A stretch of 52,377 bases of DNA, counting the filler, from Circinaria calcarea (lineage: Eukaryota), in assembly GCA_051942165.1 (NCBI GenBank). It is 2 parts of 2 records of this genome, joined end to end, with 100 filler letters (N's around TTAATTAATTAA, not from the genome) between each part and the next. Parts side by side here need not be neighbours in the genome. Positions count along the whole stretch, not along the records: positions 1 to 26,194 come from JAVECS010000084.1; 1 more part is not named here. The stretch is one strand, 5' to 3'. The position numbers and the translations under genes are program-made. Shown here in pieces: positions 10,001 to 28,692 of the stretch. The notes below the pieces were generated by a model that was not told the origin of the DNA, did no database searches, and saw only the letters and a list, made by a program, of their open reading frames with translations. Every line of letters begins with the position of its first letter. Positions within the stretch are counted from its first letter, which is position 1.

Positions 10001-11269
10001 TTCGGGGCTCTCGGGCGGCGGTTACTTACTTGGTGCTTTGCAGGCTCTTGAAGGGTAGGGCATGTATGTGGCTAGGGCTATTGGCTTTGGATTATACCCA
10101 TGAGAGCGTTTGAGGGTTTTGGAATGAGCGATGCATGGAGGGCTGTATATCAAGGAAGGACTCTTGCGAAGGTGATAGATACTCTTTTTCTGGGTCTTTC
10201 ACATCCGATCATTCTTCCTCGAGTGTGTTGCAGGTACTGGACAGGAGGACCATCAAAGGGAGGCAGCACGGCTGGCTACTTACTCACTCTCTGTATGATA
10301 ATCACACTGAGGGCTTTCTGGAGGGAGACCTTTTGTGCTTTTTAGATAAATCTTTCTCTGGCTCTCACGAGTAATCGTCTTCTACCGACCGCTCTGCAAG
10401 GGCTGTAAGTTATATTCCCTAGGTCCCTCGTCCTATCCTATCCGATCCCATCCTACCCACTCCACTCCGCCTGCTCGGCTCCATTTGCTCCGCTCGGCTC
10501 GGCTGTTCTCTTCTAACCTACGTATTGCCTCTTCCACCGTTACATACACCCACCCTAAGCAAAAAGCCTCGCTCCATTCATTATCAAAAATACCACCCCT
10601 TGCCTTTCCCTTTCCCTTCTACTCACGTTCTTCTGATTCCCATCCCATCCTAAGGGAGAATTTTGAGAATACGTAGAACTTATTTCTGGAAAGCAGCGGG
10701 GGATTTGTTCGATGATGATCCCCAAGAGCTTTAACGCCTACAGAGCTGCATATTTAAATCCATATCTTTAATAGAACGGCCGCTCCCTTAAAATAGAAAC
10801 CAATGGAAAGGTAAACTTCATTTTCGTTATAAAGGAGGCACGCGCTTGATAAAAAGGTTGGTAACTTGGACCGGGATTACTCGCTAAATATTAAGTTTTG
10901 GGAAATGTTTCTAGTAGTTTACTGTTTACATGTCCACTTGAAAGGTAAGCTTTGCTATCCCTTAAGTTGTTGCTCAGGCAGCCCGAACCCTACGTTCCTT
11001 AGATACAGGGTTGGGATTGGTCAAGCTAGACTGGCATGTTTAAGGTCGCACATTTTCATCGAGTACGCTTAAAGGCCGCGGTAGTCAATACTGTTACACA
11101 ATATACGGCAAGGTGGACAGCCTGATGATAACAAGCGCTATCGGCCTGAGTTCTTCGGAACGGGGAACGCCTCATTAGAGTATTATAACGGAGTAGCTTG
11201 TCGATGACAACGACACTGCATAGCAACAACTGCTTTGGCATCCAGTATTCTCTAGCGTTCATTTGTATC

Positions 11270-14200
11270 ATGGCTGACCCCGTTTCGGCTGCAGGAACCG
11301 CCGTTGGAGTTGTTTCCGTTGGTATACAGGTCTGTCAAGGCCTGCTATCCTACTACGCAGCCTGGAAGTCATACAGCGGCGACATCACCCATTTGTACAG
11401 TAAGATTGATGGGTTCAAATCCACGCTCGAGAATCTCGAGACAACGTTGCAGACACTCAGTCCTCAAAGTACATCAGCTACTCAGAATGTCATCGAAAAA
11501 ATCGCTTCCTGTCAAAACGCGATAGAGAAGCTGAGGGAAATCCTAGGGAAATGTCGTTCTATCAATGTGCCACAAGGAATAAGAGGAAAGGTTAAAATGC
11601 ATGGCGAAAACGCTTTATATCCGCTCAGGAAAGGAATCTTGCAAGGCTTGAAAACGACTATAGCAGATTTGCAAGATAATCTTGATAGCGCTCTTCAAAC
11701 GCTCACATTGTAAGTAGACTGGTCACCTCAAAAAGGCTTAAATTGCTGATTGTAGTCATCCAGGGATATAATGGCTAACCAGGGTCAAACTCTAACCTCA
11801 CTGACATCAACTTCAGCAAAAGCAGAGACGGAGGTGAGAGATGTCCTGCAAAGAGTTCAAAACGTGGACGTGAAGGTCGATACTGTCAATCGCATATTAC
11901 CGGATATCCAGCAGAAGACAACTCAGACCTTGCTGGATACTGCTCATATTGATAATAGTGTACACAACGTCCACCGAGACCTGAAGATCCTTCAAGGAGA
12001 CGTTATGGGATTGCTACCAAATATAGAGACCCAAATCGATAAGGTCCCCCACCGCGTAGAAACGAACATCGTGTTAAAGCTAGAAGACCACGGTCGTCGT
12101 CTCTTCGACATGATGCAAAATATAGAACGCTCTTCACTGCAACATACCGCAGAGATAAAGAGTCTTGTAAGTATTTCCTCGTATGGTTCGAACCTGATAG
12201 ACCTTCCTCGCTGAGTTTATTACAGAATGATTCAGTTAAGGGTATCCAGAGCGGCTTAATTCAAAAACCCGACTTTCTTCGCTTGGTCTGTAACGAGGCG
12301 GATCGCATCGCCGCTAAAAACGAGCTCCCGGATACGGTTTCATGTGCGTTTTCTATGCTGGATTTTTCTGCATCCTACAGAAGAGCAACCCGTCGGCGAT
12401 GCACTTGTCGACCTCATGTTAATAGATGGTACCTTCGGCCGAATTGGGGACTGAATATTCATTCTACGCGATTAAGTCACCACGAGAATTGCCCACGGTT
12501 TCGCTCCCGGACTTCAAATGCAGTAGGATTACGATTCTCCTATTGTGGGTATCTGTTAGCGCGGACAATACAGGCTTCGATATGCTATACGAAAGGAGCA
12601 GGGGGTCTCTCTCTGAGCACAACCTTGAGCTTTAGCACTGTGGTACCCGATGACTCGCCGGCATTTGCACTATTCGAACGGCGCTCCTTGATAAGTGAAA
12701 TTACCCCCCAAGACGCGTCTGACATCTTCGATAAGAAGATAGAAAGTTTACGTCGCCTTTTTCAGGAACAAAGGGCCTCGCCTTATGACGTTAATCGATA
12801 TAACGGCCACACCCTTCTACATGTACGTAATTTCGTCACTGTTTAGTTAGTCAGGATCACTAACAGTGTAGTCGTAGAGAGCTATCATACTATGTATCGA
12901 GCTTTTAGAGAAGGAAGAAAATGTTGAGATAATTTATCGCTTTCTACAAAACATCCGTAATCTTGGCATTCCTTGGAACAAGACAGACTGTTATGGAGTG
13001 TTAGTTATCTCCTATAAATAACCATTACACTTAAGTGGATTAATTATGTTAGGACCTGCCTTGATCAATTGCTCACTTACTTACCGACAAAACCGACCTT
13101 TTCGCCAATTTCGAGCTTTATAGCATTATTCCTAAGGTTGCTGGATAGCGGTGCTCAATTTGAGCGGGGGCTTATATGGAATTCCCTGAATTATCAATCT
13201 CCATACGCTACTCCTCTGCTCGCTCAAGTTCCAGATTATGCGGAAGGTACAATTTTAATCTTTAGACTGGTAGAACTTCTTGATAATAATAAGCAGTGAT
13301 ACATTGCAACGATATAAGCTTAGCGGTACTCAACCAATCAGAATCCCAGCTTAGAAAGATAATCACAAGGTTACCTCAATTGATTAATGATGCCAACGAT
13401 TATGGACAGACTCCTCTTCATTTATCTATAGGCTGGGCAGCTGGAATCAAGATACTTATTGAAGCTGGAGTCAATGTTGACCAGAAGGATCACTCTGGGC
13501 GCTCGCCAATTGTGTATGCTTGCTTGGCATCAGATTTGGAAGCACTAGGGCTCCTCGGACAAGCTGACTGTGCGTTACATACTGATAATGCTTTCAACAA
13601 TCCTTTGCGTTCCGCAATCGACATGTATGAGCATCCTCACGGTGCCGTAGAGCAGGTCGTGGGCGCTGTGACAGCGCTGCTGGCTAATAGGCGACAACGA
13701 CTTCAAGCCCTGCTCTGCACATATCTGCATTTGGATAAACTAGATCAGTTTCATCTGTCCCAAGATCAAATACTTGACGGATATGCCGTCGCGGCATTTC
13801 AGTATCTGACTGATCATGAAATTACCGTCCCTGCAGCCTTATGTCCCGGGACTTTCCGAGCTTCAGTTTATCACACGCCTGGTCTTGACTGGAGAACCTC
13901 AGAAAGTCTCTGGAATGCCGGCTTTCGCGACGTCGATGGTTTTAATGATAGAGGGCTGACACCTCTTATGAGTCAATGGATCAATGGATTCGAGTCCTTC
14001 GAAACTTATATAGAGCTTATGCTCTGGTTTGTGGCCAAAGGAGCAAGGATTCGCACCAAACAAATCAAACGGATTCTGGATCAAAACTCAGAAATTCATG
14101 GAAGGGATTACTCTCTTTTATCTGAAATGGGTACAACGGCTTTGCATTGGATTGCAATGCATATCTCGCTGATGATTAATCGGGAAATTTCTCATAGGAG

Positions 14201-14906
14201 TTCAAAGTTGGACCTCCGTACACTTTGGGAACAATTCAGCAGCCAGGTGTCCAATTTCAGCGAGACAGCAAAGCATTTTTTGGAGAGTCTTTTTACTGAT
14301 CAAACCCAAGATCGCTGCCACTGCTCTTGTTCACAACAAGGTTGCCGACCATCTACTATAGCTCTGAAATCACCACTTTATAACAATCTGTTGGAAGTAT
14401 TGAGCATAGACCCCCTATGCAACACATGCCTCGGTAAGCCCTATGACTTCCAACACAATCTGCGACGTGGATCTCACGATTTCTTGCACCACCAAGTCCG
14501 AAGCGAAGTCCGAAGAGTGTGGATAAGCACATTCTTAACTCAAGTAATTGGAACATCGGAAGAGGTTTCTCCGCAGCTGTTCATGGATCTCGTACGCCTC
14601 CTGACGTTCGAGGAACTCGACTTAACGCACACTTGCTGCCGAGTGAGTAATAATAGCATACAGGAGCCGCTTGACATAACCGATATCCACGAGATTCATG
14701 ATGAGGAGACAGTACTCCTCACCAAGCTCGAAGCCTTGGTCCTAGAATTTCAAGAGAAGAAAAGTGAGCTGAACGTTTCCATCATCGAGTTCCTGGAAGG
14801 ATACTGGGAGACGCGCATGAAAGAGGTATTGAAGGAACCGGGATACTTGAACGAGGAAGAATTGCAACGGATTGGTGTTGTGGTGCATAATGTGGCAGAT
14901 GAATAG
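11270..14906 (+). CDS. HeLo-like (fungal STAND N-terminal type) domain + coiled coil + Cys-rich motifs + ankyrin-repeat protein, ~6 exons
   Basis: N-terminus MADPVSAAGTAVGVVSVGIQVCQGLLSYY is typical of HeLo-like/SesA-like domains. Ankyrin motifs NDYGQTPLHLS, DHSGRSPIVYA, NDRGLTPL and GTTALHWIA. Cys clusters CTC..HHENCP, CHCSCSQQGC and LTFEELDLTHTCC. Five introns splice in frame. No Walker A seen. Confidence 0.75.
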
Positions 14907-15241
14907 GAGTCTGTGGGAGAGTGTAAAGGTGAACTAGGGTCTGCGGAAGGGGGAGAAAATACGCTGCAGTCTGTGGAAAAGAGAGAACATGCGGTTGACT
15001 ACCGATTTTTCGACGTTGCATGAAAATATGCCAAGGGAGGGAGAGGAGCTTGCACTATCTGCTTTTGCTCTTAATATCATAAAAAAGGTTAAATGCAATT
15101 GCTCTAAACCAGATATCGAATTTAAATGCCAAACCCAGCCTAAAATAATCTTATACACAATTTCCAGCTTAAGATAACCACAGGGCGTAGCCATAGCCGT
15201 GAAACCCGGCTTCTCGAAACTAGCCGAAATTATATATAGAA

Positions 15242-15478
15242 AGTAACGGGGAAACAGCGCTAATTGGGCAAGGCACGCATCGTACTTGATATCTCAGCAG
15301 CGATTCCCGCTTCTATTCTTCATACAATTCATATACGACTTACACACGCACTCTATATACACGACATATACACAGCATTTTACACACTATTCCTCCATAG
15401 CATTCATTCATTCATACATACATACATTCCGATCACACCGTGCAGCCTATTGAAGACGTAGCGCCCCTCTCTATAATA
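15242..15478. mobile_element. Possible degenerate solo LTR
   Basis: About 237 bp beginning aGTAACGGGG (TGTAAC-like) and ending CCCCTCTCTATAATA (transition-mutated TGTAACA-like), with an internal CA/TA-rich tract. No target-site duplication seen. Confidence 0.3.
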
Positions 15479-16252
15479 TTTTTCTTTTCTAGAGGCAGAG
15501 CGCTAAGCGCAGCTGCTTGCTGGCTGGACCCCTGCCCTGTAAAGCCTTTTAAGTTTAGTTATTAGTGCCCGCTCCACCCCTGCGCTGATTAGAGCGGGAC
15601 AGTAAGAAATTTTGGGCAAACGCCTACTGTTCTGGAATTGCCCCGTTTCTCAGCCCTCCGTTTGTTGTAATATATGAAGTAATCGTCCTGGCAGAGAAAG
15701 CAAGTAGAGAGCTTATGTTACCCGGCCGGATATTTGATCGGTTTTTATCGACGCGTCTGCGTGGATAACTGGCACGTTTTGAAAATTACTTTTTTAACAG
15801 CGACAAGAAATGAAAGTCAAGTTTTTAGCTAGGGGATTTGAGGGGCTTTATTTATTAATAGTATATACGAAAGGAAAATGGATGAGAAAGGAATAAGTTT
15901 CTAGAAGAGAGGGTTTTTAATTTTTCAACTATTTTCTATACTAAAGTACAACTGTTCAACAGTTCTAAATGTTTGGGATATTTGAACCAATGTGGAGATG
16001 TATAAGCACAACCGTTTGCTTTTTTCCCTTTCTTTGCTAATTCCGAAAGAATGGATGGAGTTTAAAGTGAAACAGAGGTAAGGGATTGGAATGAAAAATG
16101 GAGAGTATTCACGTTGCTGGCATTCGGTCGAGCTTTTTGTTGCCTTCCGGGTCTTTTTGCTTTATCGTCTCATCTGTCACACAACCAACGAAGACCGCTC
16201 CTCTCCAATTGCTAACCCCCTTCTCACACCATCCTCTCCTCTCCCAGACACC

Positions 16253-16660
16253 TCACGGAAACTCACAAACTGGATACGGATCCGACTCCTCGGAACTAAC
16301 ACACCTCATATTCTGGCTGCTCCCCATCTTTGTCCACACGCCCCTGGTCTGGCCGCGTCCGCCGGGGGAGTGATACTCGCGGTCCGCGTAGGTAATGCCA
16401 TCCAGCGCCGAGGATGAATACTGCGAGTACGGCGCCAGGTTGCGCTGCGTGCACTTGACGGTCTTGGCACGTGGGGCTGCGTTCTGCCAATTCCAGAAGT
16501 AGCAGAGATTGGGTGCGGAGGAAGAACCGGCGTCGGTGGTGAAGCGGAGCGTCCAGGGGGATTGGTTGTAGATTGTGGCGGCGTAAGTAGGGTGCGTGTG
16601 GAGGAGGAGGACTAGGATGGTGAGGAGGGTGGCAAAGGGGGGAGTTTTGAAATTGGGCAT
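16253..16660 (-). CDS. Small secreted cysteine-containing protein (135 aa, intronless)
   Basis: Signal peptide MPNFKTPPFATLLTILVLLLHTHPTYA-A. Mature region has 4 Cys. GC-rich codons. CAAAATG start context and an upstream TATA box. Confidence 0.8.
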   Translation of the reverse strand: MPNFKTPPFATLLTILVLLLHTHPTYAATIYNQSPWTLRFTTDAGSSSAPNLCYFWNWQNAAPRAKTVKCTQRNLAPYSQYSSSALDGITYADREYHSPGGRGQTRGVWTKMGSSQNMRCVSSEESDPYPVCEFP

Positions 16661-16811
16661 TTTGGTGGAGTGGTGGGAGTATGGGAGGACGTGGCTTTGG
16701 GTTTGCTTGTGGTTTGTGGAGGAGGAAGGAGTTTGTTGTAAGACTTCTGGCTTGCGATGATCTGAGAGTTCGGATGGATGGAGCGGCAACTTTGGGGGTT
16801 CCTTGAAAGGC

Positions 16812-16819
16812 ATTATATA
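16812..16819 (-). promoter_or_regulatory. TATA box of the small secreted protein gene
   Basis: TATATAAT on the minus strand, ~150 nt upstream of the ATG at 16660. Confidence 0.5.
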
Positions 16820-17238
16820 TTTTCTTGGAGCTTAGGGATCATGCGGGGAACGCCAAAGACCGCTCCAGCTGAATACGACGCCCTATGCAGAACTGTCCGC
16901 GTGCCGCCATTAGTGTATCCTTGGCCGACGGGAGAGCAAGCTGTGGGGAAATAAGACCCCAATTCGAAACTCCCAATCGGGAGATATCTACTTCTCGAAA
17001 ATGGCGTGGTGGGCGAGGGAAACGGCGTGCCGATCGGGGTGAAGGATGTTACATCGTGACTCGGAAACAGTAGCCCTTAACATAATGACTGGGTATGCAG
17101 GGAAGGGCAAGACTTGATATAGAAGAAGACGGTTTCAATATTCCTTGGCGTTGCTATTTATGAGCAAAACTCACATAGGGATTACGAAGGAGTTCGTATT
17201 AAGTCTCGCTTAATTTCTCCCTACCCATACCATATAAG

Positions 17239-17445
17239 GATCTCTACAAGGTTAGGCGAAGCGCTATAGCGAGTAGCTGTAGGACGGTAATTCATTAATA
17301 CAGCCTATTAATAATATATTCCCGAAAATCCGATCGGATCCCCGCCCAGAAAATAAAGTATTTATCGCTTGAGATAGTGCTAACTAGTAAATTACTATAA
17401 TACGGCTAGCCTAGCTAGCGCCTTCGCCTAACCATTGCGGAGATC
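17239..17445. mobile_element. Degenerate MITE-like element with ~29-45 bp terminal inverted repeats
   Basis: Left end GATCTCTACAAGGTTAGGCGAAGCGCTA (17239-17266) matches the reverse complement of the right end, GATCTCCGCAATGGTTAGGCGAAGGCGCTA (17416-17445). AT-rich non-coding interior. No TSD identified. Confidence 0.6.
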
Positions 17446-17717
17446 GCAAAAAAAGACGACCCTCAAAAGCCGCATAGACTTCTGACACCAACTGTAAAAC
17501 GCATCTGACTGACTTCTACAAAGACTATTGGGAGAGCAGAAGAAGAAAAAGAGGAGAGGGAAGGGAGAAGTGGGGAAAAGTGTATGAACAGGGAGTGGAG
17601 GGTTCTGGTATGTCTAGAAGGAATATTAAATGTTACTAGCACTCGACGTTGCAGTTTGTAAGAACAGCTGAGTAAATGTATTGACAAGTTCTTCCCTAGG
17701 ATACCAAAACGCTAATT

Positions 17718-20700
17718 TTAGGCTAGTCTTCTTCTTTTGCTGGTTGAACTCTCCTCCTGGCCCAGCGGTCGCTCTTGTTGGCTTTGGTTGCCAGAATCCA
17801 TGCTGAAGGGTTCTAGAGGCCTTAATGGGAGGCCTCCGAAAACAGGACGATTATCATCAGCGCTTCTCACTGCGATGTTGGATTGAGCCGGAACGTCAGA
17901 GGTCACGGCAGGATTAACTGTTTTTCTGAGCGAGCTTGTTGACTGACATAACTCATCCCATGTCATGCCAAGGTACTTTGATATGTTTCGAGCCCCTGGT
18001 CTTTCCCCGGGCAATTTCTTACATTGGAAAGTCGGATCCGCGCCAGATTGCAGCAAAAATCTTAGGAACTCCGCGGATCTCTTATTGGCATGATGGGCGG
18101 CAAGGTAAATGGCGGTTGAACCATTTGTGAGACTCGTGTGTGCTCCTTTCCCGACACATATAAAATTTATATTAGCTTTATTCTCCAATAAGTATCTGGC
18201 GATCTCGATCGATTTGCAGCCTGCAGAGATGGCTAACAAGAGCTCCGATTGCGCGGACTCGCTTGCGGTATGTTCCAACAGAATTTGAATGCATTGGGTA
18301 GCCACCAGTTCCTCTTCCGGTCCCATTTCTTTCCATTGATCAATAACCTGACGATAACAAGCTTGCAACTTCATATCCGCTCCGTAATTCATTAACAACT
18401 TCATGGACTCCGGAGACCTGACTACAAAAGCAAGATTAACGAGGCTTGATTTCTCATCTGCATCGAAGTATAACCACCCGGTGCAGTTTTGTGAATTTGC
18501 CCAATGTTCAAGGAGTACTCGAAGAATTTCTATTTCTTTAGACTGAATAACTAGAGAGAGATTTTTACTGTAGGTTTTCATGTTATATGTAATTATGCCT
18601 CGGGTATTGATGACGTACCCAAACTCCAACAGAAGCCGGACAGCAGGTACAGAAGATGTGCGAATGGCGTTTTCCATTGCCCTTGACAAGGGGGGATTTG
18701 GGATCTTCTCCAGCAGCTTCCGCGCACAAATCAGCTCATCAGCCTCGATCGCGTCCAAAAATATGCTCTTAAGATCTTGCGGATCATAGGGCTCGTTATG
18801 TGACGTTTTAGTTGGCACTGAGTCTCTGTTTTGGTGCGTTTCTGAGAGATGTTGGTCAAGCAGGCTTTGCGAAGAGAAACAAATATGCGAGAGGTGGCAG
18901 TCAGGAAATGAACATCTTAAAACTCTATCGTGAGACTTGACATGAGCTTTTCGTTCAGTCTGCGAAGCAAATCCAATACGGTGGAATTTACAAACAGGAC
19001 GATCACATTTGAAGATGTGTGGTCCGTAGCGTTTCACCAGCTTTAATTGTAGAGAGTTCTTAAGGTGGTCTCTGGATGGGCACGCAAGGGAGTCGAATCT
19101 TTGCCAAATACGAATAGAAGCCGCTGACACTAAAAGAGGATCGTCGTTGATCCACGTTGGTCCTATAATTCTGGGCATTAGACCACCATACCGAACCAAA
19201 AGCTTTTAAAACTTGGAAGAATTCGAAGTTCAGAACCATTTAAAGGGCCTTGGGCCCTAGGCTCAGTTGAGAACCTACATACCATTTCGGACAGAAACAA
19301 CTTGCCGTTTCTCTTGCATGAACGAGCTCATCCATCTTAGGGTGTCATAAAAACTGAATAATTGAAAGTAAACAAAGCTATGCAGAGAAACCTTGCTCGT
19401 GTCTAGCGGAGGCTCGAAATTAGGGTTTACCCGCTGTTCGAGGAAGTCAACTAAGACCTGACATATGTCTACGGTCGTAGATGAATCCGGCATATCTTGA
19501 GTGCATTGTTTGACATGCTCTAACCATTGGCTTTCAGCGTAGGCTTGTAGCACATATTCCCCAGCTAGTATTGAGTCATCGATCGCGGAGTCGTCAACAC
19601 TAACATCGAAGCACTTAAATGCAAGGTATGACATGCATGTTATGGCAACGTTTCGATGCGCAGCTACCCTTTCCAGAAAGAAGTTACTTTGCGATCCGAA
19701 TATGTATCTGCGAAGTCCTCATTAGCCTTTGATTCGACTAGATCGTGATGCAACAGACTCCTTAACAGTGAAATGTACAAAGACTACGTATTCGTCTTGA
19801 AACTCGACTATCGGCCCACAGAGCTGGACCATGTTGCGAAACCAGAAACGATCCCAAGATAGAGCGTTGTCTCCTAGTCTAATGGTGAGGGCATGCTCGA
19901 TCTCTTTTCTCTTTAAAGGGAACGGAGAACAGCCAATCCATTCAAGGATACTTCTCGCTTCTTCTCGTTCATTTGGTCTCAAATTCTTATCGATTCTCAA
20001 TCTGATGCGATCATATCTAGGAACAAGTTATTAAAACTCCTCTATTCGACGATCTGAGTAGTGAGTAATATGGAGACACACGCTTCATCCAAACCTTGTG
20101 GAAGATTATTGACTTCATCCCTGAGATTATGGATATTTGTTTGAGACATCAGTGTATCTAACACTAGTCGGGCATATAAGAACATTCCTAATGGCATAAA
20201 TTAGTAACAGGCATACAAGTTCAAAAGATGAAGCGAAGCGGTACCTTCAGCTTTTGTAGCAACTGGCTGGAACATTCTCCGAATCTCATTCGCCGTGGCG
20301 GAATCAATCTCTCTCCCTGAATCGTCTTGACATCTCAAAATCCATTCATTGGCTTTATCGACCACAAATGCCTCAATGTCGCTAAGGTTTTTATTACCGA
20401 TACAGATCCGCTGGGCGGCCGTTCTTAAAAGCCTTGAGATATCAGTTTCATCTCGACTGCTGATAAGAAGCTTCAGATTGGCATTATCGTTTGCTAGCTT
20501 TAGTAATATTACTACCAGAGCTTGCCTTTCAGGCTCCTTAATTTCGTCTAGTCCGTCGATAATAATGCATACCGATTCAACACCCTTCACTAGATCATAA
20601 AGAAGACTTTGAACAAAATCTACTGAGCTAGAAAGCTGCCGAGGATTTGACTGATATGCATGAATCACAATCGGCTGTAAATGCTTGTTTTCGACTAGAA

Positions 20701-21894
20701 GCTGAAAAGTGAGAGAATGCAATACTTGTAAAGTCGTCGTGTTGTTGTTTTGATGGCTAAGGATAGCGAATAAGGTATTCAAAGTCTTCTTCATCATACC
20801 GCGGATGATTACCGAAGATAGGTATGTTTTCCCTTCTCAACATTAACCCTCTTCAGGCAGTTTTGGCTTGCACCCTACCTGCACCAGGTATGCCCACGAG
20901 CCATATAATCCGAGTCATAGGGCTCTTGAGGTCGGACCAGTCACAGAAAGCGTCTTCAGTCCTCATCCACTCGCCCGTGACTCTGTTGCATTTGCTGCCG
21001 AGCCGTTCCAATTCATGGTCATACATACTAGGTGCAATGGAACGATTTACCTCCGCGAAGTTCAATCGATCCCACTCTTGTTGATTTTTGTCATATTCTT
21101 CATACGCACGTTCCCGTGCCTTGTAGGCTTCGGTAATATTTGCAAGCGTCACTTCGTCAGTCACGAGAAGCTTGTGACGTCTGATGTTATGAAGAATCAC
21201 AGAGATTTTACCTGCATATCGTGGCCATAGAGACTCGAAGAATATACTCCATTCTAGGCCAGTTTTAGCATCTAGTCTGCAGCATTTAACATGAGAGGTA
21301 GTGAATACTTTTGTGTCGAAAGAAGTTTAAAATAGTGACATGAAACTCTAAAATATCACTGTAGAAGATACAGAGTGCATGCTTCATTCCTTGGCTCATA
21401 TTGAACAGGTTTCCATATACTTGAAATTGAGGGAGGCTCTCTCCAATCTGAGCCATAGCTTCTAGCAAGGCATCCCAGCTCTTCAAAAATGTGCTTGAGA
21501 TCTAAGTACGAGTCAGTAGACGTGAGCGGATGGAACCAGAGAATGCTAACCAGGAGCAGGAATTTAATTGGGCCCTAAGGAAACATGAGCATTTCGGTCC
21601 AAGTTATAGATTACGACGTACCCAGATAAGACAGAGTATTTCTGGTTTGGCTTGCATGAATGTATCAAATACCCCGGTGTATTGGTTGAGACCATCTAGG
21701 TAGGGTTGAATCCTCTTCAGATTCCGTAGTGTATTTGTCTTGCCCTGTTCTTCCTGGATTTTTTCAGTCGCCTCATATACCTTGTCGATTGATGTAAACT
21801 GAGAGAAGTCATAGTCTGCTGCATCTTTAAGGTTGTGGAGAAACTCCTGTTTGGCGGATTCAAAAACACCTTGGATTGATGCTGAGGTACTCAT
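17718..21894 (-). CDS. NLR-like STAND protein: helical N-terminal domain, NACHT NTPase, winged-helix region, two C2H2 zinc fingers, ankyrin repeats
   Basis: Walker A WLVGIPGAG|KTYLSS, Walker B IIIDGLDE, LLISSR, GMFLYARLV and FVHFTVKE. Fingers CDRPVC..HVKSH and CSFPDC..HLSETH. Ankyrin-like LLEFG, LLMNYGAD, GSTAIYLAA and LLQSGADP. C-terminus SKRRRLA. Multi-exon; the junctions I checked splice in frame. Confidence 0.88.
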
Positions 21895-22384
21895 TACTTG
21901 TCTATAGACTGAGGATTCTCGGAAACAACGATAATAATCCCACTGTAACGGCGATGTCTTGAAAAGAAGATCTCACCAAAGGCCGCTTTTAATGTATGCA
22001 TGCACAAGGCCGAGCAATGCAGCGCCTCAATGCTAGCCTGGCCAATGGCTGGCCAGTGGCGAGATAAGCCATTCTGAGGCTCTACTCGTCCAATAGCACC
22101 CCGCGCATAAAGGCGCACTGCCACGTATCTGAGAGCCTTGGCTCTGAGCTACCCATGCGTGATTGGACTTACAACAAGACAGTAGAGCCTTGTCTCGCTA
22201 AAAAGAGGCTGTGCTTATTCTTCTTGCATGTAGCGCATAAGGAACCTCTCCTTCCCACAATGTCTTTACGCCAATCACTATCTGTTTCAATTACTTCGTA
22301 GCTTTTCGTTCTCATACACAAGGTCATTGATATATATGGCTGATCTCGCTGGGAAGCCCATAAATCCAAGCCATAACCCGAGTC
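21895..22384. promoter_or_regulatory. Putative bidirectional promoter shared by the NLR and SNF2 genes
   Basis: 490 bp between divergent ATGs. CCAAT boxes at 22042, 22090, 22271 (+) and 22162 (-). Inverted repeat CTGGCCA-N5-TGGCCAG at 22038-22056. Confidence 0.55.
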
Positions 22385-25300
22385 ATGAAGCGAAAATGGT
22401 ACGAAGCTAATAAAGCTAGTCGGATATCAATCAACGACCTTCTTTCACAACCTGCAACTGAATCAGCTAGCGGTGTTCCTACTGATAGCCAGCGGGCGAA
22501 TGGAAATCAAGTCCAAGCGCCTTTCTCATGTCTCTCCACCGAGCACCCGCTGGGCTATGTAATACCTCCTGAGTTTCCTATTGGACAGTTTGGATCATTG
22601 GACTATACCAGTCGGTCTCAGAACAACTTTGATAGCTTCCCAAGTATTGGCGATGTTTACCTACCCAGCCTGTCTGACGAGTCTCCATCGCTCCTCTTGG
22701 GACCAGCCAATCACGATACCATCTCGGCTAATTTCCCAAGTCAGATAAGAGATCAGTTCTTGGGCATATCACAGGACTTTCTGCGAGAACCCAGTTGTGA
22801 AGAAAGTAGAGATCACTTGCATGCGTCGCTATTTGCTGAACAAGAGGAATCCTGTATATATATCCTTTGATTTAGCCTGCCTCAAAGATGTGTACTAACC
22901 AACACTTTCAAAGCTATACCCACGTTAGATACGGCAGATACTTCATTAGATTGTGTGCAATCAGACAAGTACAATGTGTGTTTAGGAATGGTAAGTTTAA
23001 GTATCGATTAATAAAATGTTGGTACATTGAATAATTCGAGTGATAGATTTATACCGATAAAATAAAAATATCTCAATCCGTTCGCGGAAAGGTTGGCCAA
23101 CCTATGGACGTCTTGCTAAAGTTGCATGCAGACATCACCACAGTGTACTTTAAAGATTCTTCGCAGTATGCCGGTATACTGGATCAGTCCACAGCGCAAG
23201 TTGTGAAAAACCTTGTTCAAAGCTTTCGAGTAGAATTGTCCACTACTCTGATATCTCAGGGTACAGAAGTTGTTCGTCGTAATGCACCTAAAAATCATTT
23301 TGATGAGCTGTGTATTGTGGTGTACGGCTTTAACAACGATAGTGAAGCAATTGGGGATTTGCTCTCCCAAAATAACACGTACTTACAGCACCCTCGAGTA
23401 TATGACCGTACGGTGATCTATGATAATCCTCAGTATCTCGTTAAGCCTGGCAGCAAGCTAGAAGCTCCTGATGATCTAGTTTCAGTATCAGCTACTGCTT
23501 TGTCTACTGAGCGGAAGAAAGCTGTACTTACCAAGGATCAAATCGTGCAAGTCTTCGACAATGCACATGGCCCGCAGATTTATTGCGAAGTACCAGTGAG
23601 TGAGCGCCTAGAGACAAGGCTTAAAAGGTGAATAGCTGGTTCACTGTGGTCCTTTTATTTTCTCCACGACACCCGATGTCCAGCTCTGATTTTGGATTAC
23701 AGTCATCAAAAGAAGGCTCTTGCTATGATGCTCGAGAAAGAACGAGGGCGAATCGAAGGCAATGAATTCGGCAGCATGTGGGACTGCGGACTAATGGAGA
23801 ATGGCCATCTAAGGTTTGCTACATATAAGTCTTGCGAAGACATGCAGTAACCTTACGATGATCATAGGTATAGAAACATTGTTACCGGATCTGTAAGGGA
23901 TGAGCGCCCTCAGATGTGTCTTGGTGGCTTACTCGCAGATGTAAGCATCTTTATTTATCACATTGTTATATCTTGAGGCTGAGGCATACGACTCGCCTTC
24001 AATAGGAGATGGGCCTGGGGAAGACGTTGACCACGCTTGCTCTCATCGCTACTTCCCTTGACGGCTTAGACCAAACAGCAACTCAAGACACCATGGATTC
24101 TCTAGATGCTGGGCTTAACTCCAAGTGTCGAACCACTCTTATTGTAACACCTTTATCAAGTATGCTGTTCCTCGTGCCACACCGAAAGCATATACTGATC
24201 TGGTGGGTCTCAAGCTCTTTCTACCTGGGATGAGCAGATCATGCGGTAGGCCTCCAAATCTCTTTATGTGCCGGCCTTCGAGCTTATCATTATCTATAGA
24301 CATTTCAAGTCGAATAGCATAAGGGTATTGCTTTACCACGGTGCTGGCAAAAAGGGCAACCCCTTAGAATCGGTCAATCAGGATATCGTAATTACAACAT
24401 ACGGTACCCTGACAGCTGAGTGGTCGGAGAAAGCCCAAGGTTCGACTACGAACTCGGGCATATTACACTCGTACAGCTGGCTTCGTGTAGTCCTAGATGA
24501 AGGTCAGTTATGGGTCCACGGAACTTTGGTATTGCGTAAACTGACATCAGCCGCTTAAAATAGCTCACGTCATAAGGAATCATCTGACAAGACAATATCA
24601 AGCAGCGAACGCTCTCAAAGCCGAACATAGATGGTGTTTGTCGGGCACACCAATCCAGAATAGAGTTGAGGATATTGGAGCGCTGTTCAGTTTCTTGCGC
24701 CTGGCGCCTTTTGACAACAAACATACGTTTAACACCTATATCAGCAATCCGATCAAGGTAGGCAATCAAGCTGGCATGAAGAGATTACGCTTGATCATAA
24801 ACTCTATAGCCTTACGACGAACAAAAAATTGTGTTGGGGATGAGCTTCAACTGCCAAGGCGGGTCAATCAGGAAGTTTGGATCAAACTTGATTCCGAGGA
24901 GAGGAAGCTCTATGATGTGTTCAGAAAAAGCTCCTTTGAGGTCGTCGATACAATGGCTCATGACACTTCAAAGGTAAAGTCCTTTAATACTGTACTAAAG
25001 GCAATCCTAAGGCTCAGACAAATTTGCAATCATGGCTCCGATCTGCTCTCGTCTGAGGCTCTAAGAACCATAGGGAAAACCCACGATTCAAGCACAGATA
25101 TTTCCTCAAACGAGGGAGTGGAAACTTGTGAGGGCTGTGACACACCGCTTACAGACCCGGCAATAGATGAGAACGGACCAATTCAATCTGGCTGCATGCT
25201 ACATATGCTTTGTTCTCAGTGCTTACTCCGAGGTCAGGAAGAAAGCGATCCAGAATGCCTGGTTTGTCCCTTGTGTACAAGAACAGGAACAGGAGCCGCT

Positions 25301-26145
25301 GTACTTGACGAGTATTCGGATGAAGGACAGACGCCGAGTTCAATCGGTACTAATGAAAGCGTTCGACCATCATCTAAGGTCCAAGCGCTGTTGAAGAACT
25401 TGAAAGCTTTTCGTGCGGAGTCCTCGAACATACCTATCAAAAGGTTTGATCCCTTTCCCTTTTCCAGAAGGTCAGATTTACGAGGGCTGACCGCTCACCA
25501 AGCGTTGTTTTCTCGGCATGGACTAAGTTGTTGGACCTAATCCAAGTAGCATTGCAATCTGAAGGCTTTAATTTCGTGAGAATCGACGGTAAGAAGTCAG
25601 ATAAGCAAAGAAGGGAAGCCTTGAAAAGGTTCCGCACAGACCGGACGTGCACAATCTTGGTGGCGACCATCGGGAGTGCCGGCGTAGGGTAAGCACAAGT
25701 CATTGATTATTCCTGTCCATAAATGGGGAAAGACAGTGAGCAACTGATACCAAGGGTCAGCTTAGATCTAACGGCCGCTTGCCGGGTTCATCTAATTGAA
25801 CCGCAGTGGAACCCTGCAGCCGAAGAGCAAGCTCTAGATCGAGTCCACAGAATGGGCCAGACTCGGGAAGTTATTGCTATCCGTTACGTTGTCGACAAAT
25901 CCATTGAGAATGTAACAAAAAAACACCGCTTTGCATGCATGATACGCAAGGATACTAACCGCGTGCAATGCAGTACGTCATGTGGTACCAGAAAAGAAAG
26001 TTGGAATTGATCGAGCATTCACTGGGAGCGAACCCGTTAAAGGCTGACTTGGTTAGGAAACGCTTGGAGGTAAGGTAGTTTAGGTTCTACGAGCTTTAAT
26101 CAATTGCTGACCAACCCCTAGAATCTGAAAAGCTTCTTAAGTTAA
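22385..26145 (+). CDS. SNF2-family ATPase with inserted RING finger (Rad5/Rad16-like group), ~13 exons
   Basis: GGLLAD|EMGLGKT, TLIVTPLS, VVLDE|AHVIRN, CLSGTPIQN, LRRTK, LRLRQICNH, RING-like CEGC..C..H.LCSQC..CPLC, VVFSAWT, RIDG and EPQWNPAAEEQALDRVHRMGQ. Twelve introns splice in frame to the stop at 26143-26145. Confidence 0.92.
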
Positions 26146-26194
26146 AAGGCTGTCGGGTAAAGTCTCGCAGGGGAAGAAAGGGGAAGGGGAAGGG

Positions 26195-26294
26195 NNNNNN
26201 NNNNNNNNNNNNNNNNNNNNNNNNNNNNNNNNNNNNNNTTAATTAATTAANNNNNNNNNNNNNNNNNNNNNNNNNNNNNNNNNNNNNNNNNNNN
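26195..26294. other. Assembly gap with synthetic linker (44 N + TTAATTAATTAA + 44 N)
   Basis: Exactly 100 nt and symmetrical. TTAATTAATTAA places stop codons in all six frames. Confidence 0.95.
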
Positions 26295-26326
26295 CCCCCA
26301 AAACAAACAAACCAACAAACCGTTAA

Positions 26327-26521
<195 letters not shown>

Positions 26522-27137: not shown

Positions 27138-28692
27138 TCATGCATCATCCTTACCACCGCTTCCCTCATTCTTGGGTTGGATTGCTCGACCCAAGCTTTC
27201 GATGTTGCGGCCGGCGTGGGCCGCTGCTGAATCCGCGGTCGCACTTGCATTCTCCAATACTTTGCTTGCAACAGCCTGAGCTCCATCGTATGCCTTGTCT
27301 GTCGTTTTAGCAACCGTTTCCTTGGTAGCTGTCACAGTAGGCTCTAACGATGTTCTAGTAGACTCCATAGCCGCTTTCATAGATTCATACACCGTAGATG
27401 ATTGTGTGGAAGCCTCTCTTGCCAGGCTTTGGCCTTTATTGCTCAGAGCTTCAGCGCCATCTTTCACTTTATCAATCGATGCTTGGGTTTGCGCCTTCGT
27501 CATATCCACTAGTTGCGGAGGGCTAGGGTACCTCTTCAATAGCTTCAGGATCGTGTAATAGAGCTGGATGATCAATTTGTGAACAGCTTCTTTGATGATC
27601 ATTGTGAGGCCATGGCCGAAAAACCCTTTCAACACCTCTCCACTGAGACCTTCGTAAAGGGCTGAGATGCCTTCATTGCGTGCGATATATAAGATGGTGC
27701 TGAAGACGGTACTCCGAACTGCTCTGCGACCACTCTTTGTACCCCCTATTTTGCCATCCGAGGCTTTATCTAAAGATTCCTTAATCTCGGTGTCATTGGT
27801 ATCAACGCTATCTGAAGACGCTTGTGCACGAGCTTTTGCAAGGGAGAAGGGGTATGTAATCGATGAAGCAATGGCTTTACTCATAGCAGCCAAAAGAAAG
27901 GTTGCCTGTGGCGCTGGATTCGATTGTTGGTTGCGTGAGAGCAACACACGCTTAAGAGTTTCGTAGAAAAAGAATGTAAGAGACGGATTGAGTGTTAGAA
28001 CAAGACTGGCAGAGTACCCCGACCAAAATCCTTGGAGGCCTTTCTCCGAGTAAATATCCTTGGCGATCGAGCGTGTTGTAGCTGGCTTCGTAGAAATATT
28101 AGGAGTATGTACAGAAAGCATTGATGACGTTTGTTTCCGGGTCACAATGTTCGCCAGCGGCGTCGTCAATAATTTCGCAAATGCGCCTGCGAAGAATCCG
28201 ATACTCAACTCATCTAAGACTGGCAAATGCTTGGAAGATCCACTTTGAGACCGAAGACGAGATTGCCGAAGGAAGTTGTACGCCAGGAAGAAGAGAAATG
28301 AATCCGCAATGGTTTTGGACGTGCTGTGGAGGACGCCGGTGTAAAGTCCGAGGACACCGCCCTCCTGAGCGTAGATCTTTTCGGCTGTATCCCGAATGGA
28401 CTTGTACCCATCTGAGTGAGGGGATGCGGTATCCTTGCTTAGTTGGCGTTGAATCTGGAGACGAGTAACGATCAGATCGAGAGGATAGGTGAAGATATTG
28501 GAGATAGCTGCTCCTGTAGATCCGGCCACTGCATGCCCTACTGCGGGAAGGGTAGGGCCGCCGAGGACCGAGTGGGTTTCCTCATGGATCTTGTGGTAGA
28601 GAGTGAACGCATCCTACACGCAAGAAATCAGTCTGGCTTCGACATAAGCTGTTGTTGTTCCATACCACTTGACTGTTGTAAATTTCCGCCAT
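27138..28692 (-). CDS. ANT1: Mitochondrial-carrier-family protein, peroxisomal adenine nucleotide transporter type
   Basis: Three carrier repeats with signature-like motifs YPLDLIVTRLQ, TPLANIVTRKQ and YPFSLAKARAQ, plus LTLNPSLTF. Short first exon MAEIYNSQV, one intron, and a helical C-terminal extension. Confidence 0.8.

Follow-up and report, generated by a model that had tools for sequence, protein, structure and literature searches.

Results

A divergent NLR and SNF2 gene pair

The window analysed here, a stretch of 52,377 nucleotides of DNA from Circinaria calcarea (assembly GCA_051942165.1), carries two genes that diverge from a shared spacer, one coding for a receptor of the NOD-like class (NLR) that has a NACHT domain and the other for a SNF2 ATPase of Rad5/HLTF architecture, and together they are one copy of a two-gene cassette that is conserved among filamentous ascomycetes. 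An original prediction, made from the sequence alone, had described two long, apparently intact, head-to-head multi-exon genes at this place and had read them as a candidate co-regulated system of nuclear immunity or genome defence. Both genes are indeed located where it had placed them, and both gene models are supported by near-full-length single alignments to annotated relatives. The introns of both are short (46-120 nt), of GT-AG type and with CTAAC-type branch sites, as expected of a fungal-type gene structure. The gene models, built manually and guided by homology, comprise the following features:

17718..21894, minus strand: NLR gene, 9 exons, 1228 aa, ATG at 21894 and stop at 17718-17720 (manual GT-AG model)
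21894-21622, 21574-21551, 21501-21309, 21253-20879, 20832-20245, minus strand: NLR exons 1-5
20187-20082, 20016-19759, 19707-19283, 19162-17718, minus strand: NLR exons 6-9
21895..22384, no strand assigned: divergent spacer, ATG to ATG, 490 bp, with CCAAT boxes and one GAGGCTGTGC word starting at 22206
22385..26145, plus strand: SNF2 gene, 13 exons, 1011 aa, ATG at 22385 and stop at 26143-26145 (homology-guided model)
22385-22853, 22914-22990, 23047-23627, 23703-23813, 23868-23940, 24006-24159, 24215-24245, plus strand: SNF2 exons 1-7
24300-24502, 24564-25443, 25503-25688, 25761-25911, 25974-26069, 26122-26145, plus strand: SNF2 exons 8-13

Residues 10-956 of the NLR align with a relative from Aplosporella (P0121) at 41% identity in a single high-scoring segment pair, and since this one segment spans the whole region, no frameshift is apparent; the least certain NLR intron is the last one, of 120 nt. 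Likewise, one segment joins residues 178-1004 of the SNF2 protein to its relative P0137 (46% identity). SNF2 residues 1-177, including the initial MKRKW, match no relative, and its start codon is therefore no more than the earliest ATG in the open frame.

The two genes recur as immediate neighbours

Metagenome contigs were scanned with the SNF2 alignment alone, using the patterns RLRQICNH and GTPIQNR[LV][ED], and the best 80 of 404 SNF2 relatives were kept as loci (26-41% identity, 754 kb in total), which were then searched with the window NLR model and four NLR relatives. An NLR-family match was found in 32 of the 80 loci, and in 30 once the match had to start before query residue 650; L016, with an ankyrin-only match, and L026, with C-terminal matches only, were dropped from the positive set. 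In all 30 loci the NLR immediately adjoins the SNF2 gene, lying upstream and divergent in 24 and downstream and convergent in six (three clusters), with no tandem arrangement. Clustering at 90% identity yielded 57 clusters, namely 21 positive, 7 negative and 29 too short for testing, which amounts to linkage in 21 of 28 informative clusters. Here, a cluster counts as negative if at least its upstream side was testable (four of the seven on both sides; L043 and L054 upstream only). Four more of the short clusters carry an ankyrin-bearing open reading frame (ORF) alone, in convergent position. Furthermore, every NLR-family match in the 754 kb lies at most 4.9 kb from the SNF2 block, and none occurs elsewhere in the flanks.

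The positive loci come from many differently prefixed contig sets, and among 1134 flank ORFs of at least 90 aa no family was common to three or more positive clusters, NLR C-terminal fragments excepted, which means that the loci do not form one syntenic block. Recurrent linkage at non-syntenic loci, the test that the original prediction had set itself beforehand, was thus found in metagenomes, and it extends to two named genomes. In Aplosporella prunicola the NLR (KAF2138225.1) and the SNF2 protein (KAF2138226.1) have consecutive accessions and the same contig size (630843), and in Fusarium sarcochroum FSARC_14703 (SNF2) and FSARC_14704 (NLR) follow each other on a 7758-bp contig. These were the only two species present in both named sets, which held 20 of 132 SNF2 representatives and 10 NLR relatives, so that the genes are consecutive in two of two. 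The unlinked homologues that would have spoken against a unit are therefore not what these 30 loci and two species display.

The species lists by themselves had not suggested this outcome, as the best relatives of the SNF2 protein (Hypoxylaceae and Usnea, ~40% identity) and those of the NLR (Aplosporella, Xylographa, Thelonectria, Trichoglossum, Chlorociboria, Fusarium and Aspergillus) initially had no species in common. When the C-terminal exon of the NLR was used in a word-indexed search, no relative came up, a weak negative given that ankyrin words crowd the candidate list. In one biocrust metagenome run (X1), short contigs 85-99% alike cover NLR, spacer and SNF2 (window 14000-26195, 8% of words) in the same order; coming from a close relative that keeps the arrangement, they do not count as independent support.

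The orientation of the pair is less constant than its adjacency. The nearest neighbours of the window in the SNF2 tree (L010, L020 and L022) have convergent pairs, in contrast to the divergent pair of the window; orientation was thus flipped with adjacency kept, which argues against a shared promoter as the constraint. The six convergent loci include members of the window's own SNF2 clade, so that a common promoter is not essential.

Both families diversified together

For 19 representatives, the patristic distances of NLR and SNF2 correlate at r = 0.817, a value reached in none of 2000 permutations, and their trees have 7 of 16 splits in common, where 500 label permutations gave 0.23 on average and never more than 4. 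The comparison of the two gene trees that had been proposed as a check thus came out congruent. From such congruence it follows that the two genes have long been inherited and duplicated together; functional co-evolution does not follow from it alone. Taken with the linkage data, the two genes are inherited, duplicated and rearranged as a unit, whose immediate adjacency is kept while the surroundings change.

A Rad5/HLTF-type enzyme apart from RAD5

The SNF2 protein comprises, in order, a HIRAN fold and a SNF2 ATPase with a RING embedded between its lobes, which is the architecture of Rad5/HLTF:

23077..23421, plus strand: HIRAN-fold domain in exon 3 (AlphaFold2 model and Foldseek)
24006..25911, plus strand: SNF2 ATPase core (SNF2-rel_dom E 4.5e-37, Helicase_C E 1.5e-9)
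25127..25276, plus strand: C3HC4 RING between the two ATPase lobes (pattern match)

The ATPase motifs and the RING had been claimed from the outset, and both hold up: motifs I (GLGKT), II (DEAH, split by the intron at 24503-24563), III (GTPIQN) and VI (QALDRVHRMGQ) are all present, and the eight ligands of the C3HC4 pattern are invariant in 16 of 16 family sequences. Pfam RING models stayed below their cut-off on the window SNF2 (best zf-RING_5, E 0.016). Exon 3 has no match to any Pfam model, and the HIRAN region became visible when this exon was folded with 15 relatives by AlphaFold2, where residues 11-125 reached a predicted local distance difference test score (pLDDT) of 73-92. Among the 12 matches listed from the top 15 ranks of a Foldseek search against the PDB, every one was an HLTF HIRAN or Kluyveromyces lactis Rad5 with probability 1.00, and stand-alone HIRAN chains matched the exon 3 model with template modelling scores (TMt) of 0.57-0.66. 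The Pfam HIRAN model had no match in exon 3 of the window or in the scanned relatives, so the domain is assigned at the level of fold only. In addition, the best solved sequence match of a family member (P0003) is K. lactis Rad5, with 218 bits vs 153 for the next.

Despite this kinship in domain order and folds with yeast Rad5 and human HLTF, including the RING between the lobes with its invariant ligands, the window SNF2 differs from both in falling into a separate clade, in being of a type that coexists with RAD5 and in its link to an NLR gene. When 77 sequences were placed in a tree (quick search, region of a single exon), a clade of 64 rows with a Shimodaira-Hasegawa-like approximate likelihood ratio support of 92 excludes four RAD5 references, RAD16, TTF2/lodestar and CHR27. 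It contains the window, 56 of 58 locus representatives and relatives from Hypoxylaceae, Usnea, Apiospora and Penicillium. The window SNF2 accordingly does not group with bona fide RAD5, and Apiospora species carry a named RAD5 plus a window-type SNF2. The protein is thus an extra paralogue of Rad5/HLTF type and not the housekeeping RAD5, the orthologue whose presence here the original prediction had named as grounds for its own rejection.

With the SNF2 exon as query, HMMER retrieved 132 representatives at E<=1e-30 in an exhaustive search. The named relatives of the SNF2 protein belong to the classes Sordariomycetes, Dothideomycetes, Eurotiomycetes, Leotiomycetes, Lecanoromycetes and Geoglossomycetes. 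Three observations on single relatives may be added. One with 39% identity (P0194) bears the name of a plant, Thlaspi arvense, in its record ("unnamed protein product, partial") and may be fungal DNA within a plant assembly. Locus L041 has a second, more distant SNF2-like gene (18989-20643), which lies ~7.6 kb downstream of the paired SNF2 gene and is not accompanied by another NLR. Finally, the cluster of P0143 consists of 13 near-identical SNF2 relatives from many Logan assemblies with up to 38 contigs each, the longest contig measuring 9.3-10.2 kb in 11 of the 13 and 17.8 and 22.1 kb in the other two; the cluster could stem from a single species that is sequenced often, or from a unit bounded by repeats.

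A finger-bearing NLR

Searched exon by exon with Pfam, and with the fingers taken from the alignment, the NLR shows the following order of domains:

20990..21894, minus strand: N-terminal all-helical domain, DUF7708, about residues 1-250, exons 1-4 (boundaries approximate)
20245..20960, minus strand: NACHT (NPHP3_N-type) NTPase (NPHP3_N E 6.5e-17, NACHT E 2e-4; boundaries approximate)
19759..20016, minus strand: winged helix, GPIID_WHD (Pfam E 3.3e-7)
18834..19007, minus strand: two tandem C2H2-like zinc fingers with an HDRxxxC linker, HDRPxKC-like in the alignment (alignment with relatives)
18027..18296, minus strand: degenerate ankyrin repeats that form no tandem DNA array (Ank_2 E 4.2e-12)

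A NACHT with Walker A and B followed by a winged helix, within the tripartite layout of N-domain, nucleotide-binding oligomerization domain and C-terminal repeats, identifies it as a fungal NACHT NLR of the STAND class (signal transduction ATPases with numerous domains). Both Walker motifs are intact, Walker A (GIPGAGKT) being split by a 46-nt intron and Walker B reading CIIIDGLDE. The N-terminal domain matches DUF7708 with E 1.6e-6 in exon 3 and with E 1e-10 to 1e-15 in relatives, and the first 281 residues of P0121, the closest named relative and taken as a stand-in for the window NLR, were modelled by AlphaFold2 as all-helical with 12 helices (pLDDT 81). The Pfam family Goodbye (PF17109) matched weakly (E 0.009) in P0128, one of five NLR relatives scanned.

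The two C2H2 fingers of the original prediction stand as a conserved ligand pattern, but not as a match to a curated profile. In an alignment (A4) of the window with 11 relatives, both read C-x4-C-x15-H-x3/4-H, with a loop three residues over the canonical length; H73, H77, C83, C88, H104 and H109 are invariant, while at least 90% of the 12 sequences retain C52 and C57. The Pfam zf-C2H2 models did not match the fingers even at E<=10, and a PDB sequence search returned weak likeness only, to BCL11A (E 0.19) and ADR1 (E 1). The nuclear-type motifs fared similarly. SKRRRLA at the NLR C-terminus and MKRKW at the SNF2 start are present in the window, but neither is conserved as such in relatives (11 in the case of the NLR ending), and the nuclear location read from such motifs is putative.

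Tandem Repeats Finder detected no tandem array within the window, whose NLR thus lacks self-similar C-terminal repeats of the diversifying type. In relatives of four lineages (L005/6/7, L012/15, L035 and L049), the same program found NLR 3' ends made of tandem ankyrin-coding arrays with units of 99 nt (33 residues) or 201-204 nt, in 2.5-24 copies with 76-89% matching. The 99-nt arrays number 8-24 copies. Five arrays, with units of 99 or 204 nt in 4.6-24.5 copies and 76-88% matching, are placed as follows:

L005, 2934-3759: NLR ankyrin-coding array
L006, 2432-3212: NLR ankyrin-coding array
L015, 2078-3003: NLR ankyrin-coding array
L035, 4-1664: NLR ankyrin-coding array
L049, 1326-3737: NLR ankyrin-coding array

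Self-similar repeats of such kind are tied to fast diversification of fungal NLRs in the accessible text of PMC4986451.

Words in the intergenic spacer

The four CCAAT boxes reported earlier are present in the window spacer (22042+, 22090+, 22162- and 22271+), but they are no feature of the family, as 6 of 17 relatives' spacers have none. Their enrichment is also marginal, with 129 CCAAT in the 52,377 bases of the window and hence ~1.2 expected in 490 bp (Poisson P ~0.03). Across 18 spacers the most enriched GC-containing words are 7-mers based on AGGCTG, namely AGGCTGA (14 vs 2.4 expected), GGCTGTG (13 vs 2.6) and GAGGCTG (12 vs 2.8). The combined word RGGCTGWS, that is GAGGCTG(A/T)(G/C)-type, occurs 25 times vs 3.9 expected (~6-fold) in 13 of 18 spacers, a figure that is optimistic because these spacers also served to define the word; Markov simulations averaged 4.3 and did not exceed 13. 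Such words resemble the Crz1 calcineurin-response element, a stress-response element.

Discussion

What the pair may do

We are highly confident that the NLR and SNF2 genes form a real co-inherited unit, and this half of the proposed co-regulated system is carried by linkage and co-diversification, whereas the mechanism is a matter of interpretation. That the two proteins act together on DNA appears somewhat probable, and a role in defence or non-self recognition can be put forward only tentatively; immunity and guarding are roles that we infer. In such a scheme the NLR would be an ATP-driven switch whose ankyrin end senses a variable cue, and its fingers would place it on nucleic acid or on its partner. 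Once switched on, presumably in the nucleus, the NLR might recruit or license the Rad5/HLTF-like enzyme, in which the HIRAN domain would hold a DNA 3' end, the SNF2 motor would remodel DNA and the RING would ubiquitinate a target, all of them putative activities. The enzyme could be either a DNA-directed executor or a guarded component. The likeliest purpose may be surveillance of foreign or aberrant DNA, in the sense of genome defence or of a controlled damage or cell-fate response, and not bulk housekeeping repair; we lean towards it because of the accessory distribution and the diversifying repeats.

A more daring version, which we regard as doubtful, would have the invariant finger pair recognise either a word of GAGGCTG type or DNA that is foreign or aberrant, whereupon the NACHT switch would load there the Rad5/HLTF-like translocase and E3 ligase dedicated to it; alternatively, the NLR might guard an HLTF-like restriction factor that invaders would otherwise disable. 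Human HLTF is targeted by viral proteins. Such a DNA-addressed NLR would be a fungal device of nuclear innate immunity or genome defence that has no described counterpart, and a defence role in general would give eukaryotic innate immunity a new kind of reach into the nucleus.

Comparison with known systems

The SNF2 motor encoded beside a defence-type NTPase is reminiscent of bacterial defence systems with SNF2 ATPases, such as Zorya (ZorD) and DISARM (DrmD). In this comparison by description, no specific homology beyond the SNF2 core was seen, and the closest relatives of the window SNF2 are eukaryotic and Rad5/HLTF-like. Plant NLR pairs of the RRS1/RPS4 type, which are arranged head-to-head and have an integrated DNA-binding domain, likewise combine divergent genes with an NLR bearing a domain of DNA-binding type. 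They differ in that only one partner in the window is an NLR, the other being a SNF2 ATPase, in that some of our cassettes are convergent, and in that the fingers are invariant in the family and not sporadic integrations.

In the accessible text of PMC12258605, C2H2 fingers appear as non-canonical domains in 34 Sordariales NLRs, and a helicase neighbour is not mentioned there. The accessible part of PMC4986451 likewise describes NLRs with a long helical N-domain of unassigned function before a NACHT with ankyrin repeats; compared with what is given there, the fitting Pfam family for the window N-domain is DUF7708. Also the NWD2/HET-S amyloid relay and the NLR-gasdermin pairs, as far as the accessible text of PMC9815663 covers them, keep an NLR gene beside a non-NLR partner as a heritable unit. 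Unlike HET-S, the partner in the window is a DNA enzyme of 1000 aa and not a small pore-former, and the NLR has its own long helical N-domain. As the NLR and SNF2 proteins share no motif (best local similarity E 0.17), an amyloid-type relay does not apply.

Full-text literature searches, together with the accessible text of NLR and population-genomics papers, describe no pairing of an NLR with SNF2/Rad5, although the supplementary neighbour tables of PMC9815663 and PMC12258605 might list some. As far as these searches reach, the pair is thus undescribed, in agreement with the original prediction, which knew of no characterised fungal NLR-SNF2 pair. For most NLRs of fungi no function is known, and the understood NLR-partner pairs signal only to pore-forming proteins. 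In the widespread, co-evolving pairing described here, which joins a finger-bearing NLR to a DNA translocase and ubiquitin ligase, the switching of an NLR would be coupled directly to transactions of DNA, and the pairing offers a two-gene handle for genetics, with one or both homologues in the tractable genera Fusarium, Aspergillus and Podospora.

Alternative explanations

Besides the absent common motif and the limit on tree congruence, several observations weigh against a defence pair acting jointly on DNA. Seven informative SNF2 clusters lack an NLR. Four of them (L029, L037, L044/46/47 and L070/75) form, with the short locus L060, one subclade (support 98*), and L056 is placed in another small clade. 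In the three loci of this NLR-free subclade that were scanned with Pfam, the upstream neighbour is in each case a PI3/PI4-kinase gene:

L029, 4531-6971: PI3/PI4-kinase-like gene, upstream, same strand
L044, 1373-3670: PI3/PI4-kinase-like gene, upstream, same strand
L070, 4622-7024: PI3/PI4-kinase-like gene, upstream, same strand

This subclade may be a syntenic, housekeeping-like branch ancestral to the NLR-linked copies. Furthermore, the SNF2 tree had no Uls1/Ris1 and Irc20 references, so that of the phylogeny proposed originally the separation from Rad5 and Rad16 stands while Uls1 and Irc20 are absent from the set. Fold searches with the DUF7708 model of P0121 returned designed helical repeats only (Z<=9.8) and are uninformative, and, apart from the optimistic word enrichment, the window spacer itself has a single RGGCTGWS word (22206-22213), with a CCAAT box 65 nt later, a succession that did not emerge as a rule from the 17 relatives' spacers.

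Some of these points suit a housekeeping or regulatory pair, in which the NACHT-finger protein would be a signal-dependent STAND regulator, similar to the MalT-like STAND transcription factors of bacteria. Its role would be to adjust a Rad5-like partner, either a fork remodeller or a co-activator, during DNA-damage tolerance or stress transcription. The NLR architecture is conserved along its whole length, invariant fingers included, and could equally fit a housekeeping regulator; the enzyme motifs are intact, the spacers have in common the GAGGCTG-type word that resembles a stress-response element, and the sister SNF2 subclade sits in conserved synteny with the PI3/PI4 kinase. Nevertheless, we judge this explanation unlikely, as the flanks are non-syntenic, the paralogous cassette lineages are deep, identity among relatives is low (only ~35-46%), the ankyrin arrays of relatives are self-similar in the manner typical of diversifying NLRs, and a true RAD5 coexists with the window-type SNF2 in Apiospora. 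If it were correct, it would reveal a STAND-regulated branch of Rad5/HLTF biology.

It is considerably less probable that the cassette is a mobile or hitch-hiking element, whose linkage would come from co-transfer as cargo and not from joint function. Differing flanks, the existence of both orientations, the many assemblies with contigs of the P0143 90% cluster, mostly 9.3-10.2 kb at their longest, and the 60-nt direct repeats that flank the L062 pair 9754 nt apart would all be in keeping with mobility. However, nine loci have no consistent terminal repeats, no transposase or recombinase family recurs in the flanks, and the divergence of the cassette is deep and tree-like. Chance adjacency of two expanded, fast-evolving fungal families, to which the first relative lists without a common species (Hypoxylaceae and Usnea for SNF2; Aplosporella, Xylographa, Thelonectria and others for the NLR) and the presence of another STAND-like gene in the window (11189-14906) had lent some colour, we reject as extremely improbable, since linkage in 21 of 28 informative clusters with zero non-adjacent NLR matches, congruent trees and consecutive accessions in two named genomes overturned the argument from species lists.

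Surroundings of the pair in the window

About 3 kb from the 3' end of the NLR gene lies the second STAND-like gene on the plus strand (11189-14906), which has ankyrin repeats and a weak PigL_N/HeLo-like N-terminal match (E 1.8e-4); a scan of its ORF pieces detected no P-loop domain. An ORF on the minus strand (16253-16831), situated between the two STAND-like genes, begins with a hydrophobic, signal-peptide-like start, has no Pfam match and may code for a small secreted protein. On the other side, 50 bp past the SNF2 stop, a run of N with TTAATTAATTAA mid-way (26196-26295) resembles an artificial contig join, for which reason the DNA to the right of 26295 is perhaps not a true neighbour. It holds the C-terminal frame of a histone H4 (26327-26521) and a mitochondrial carrier (27138-28613).

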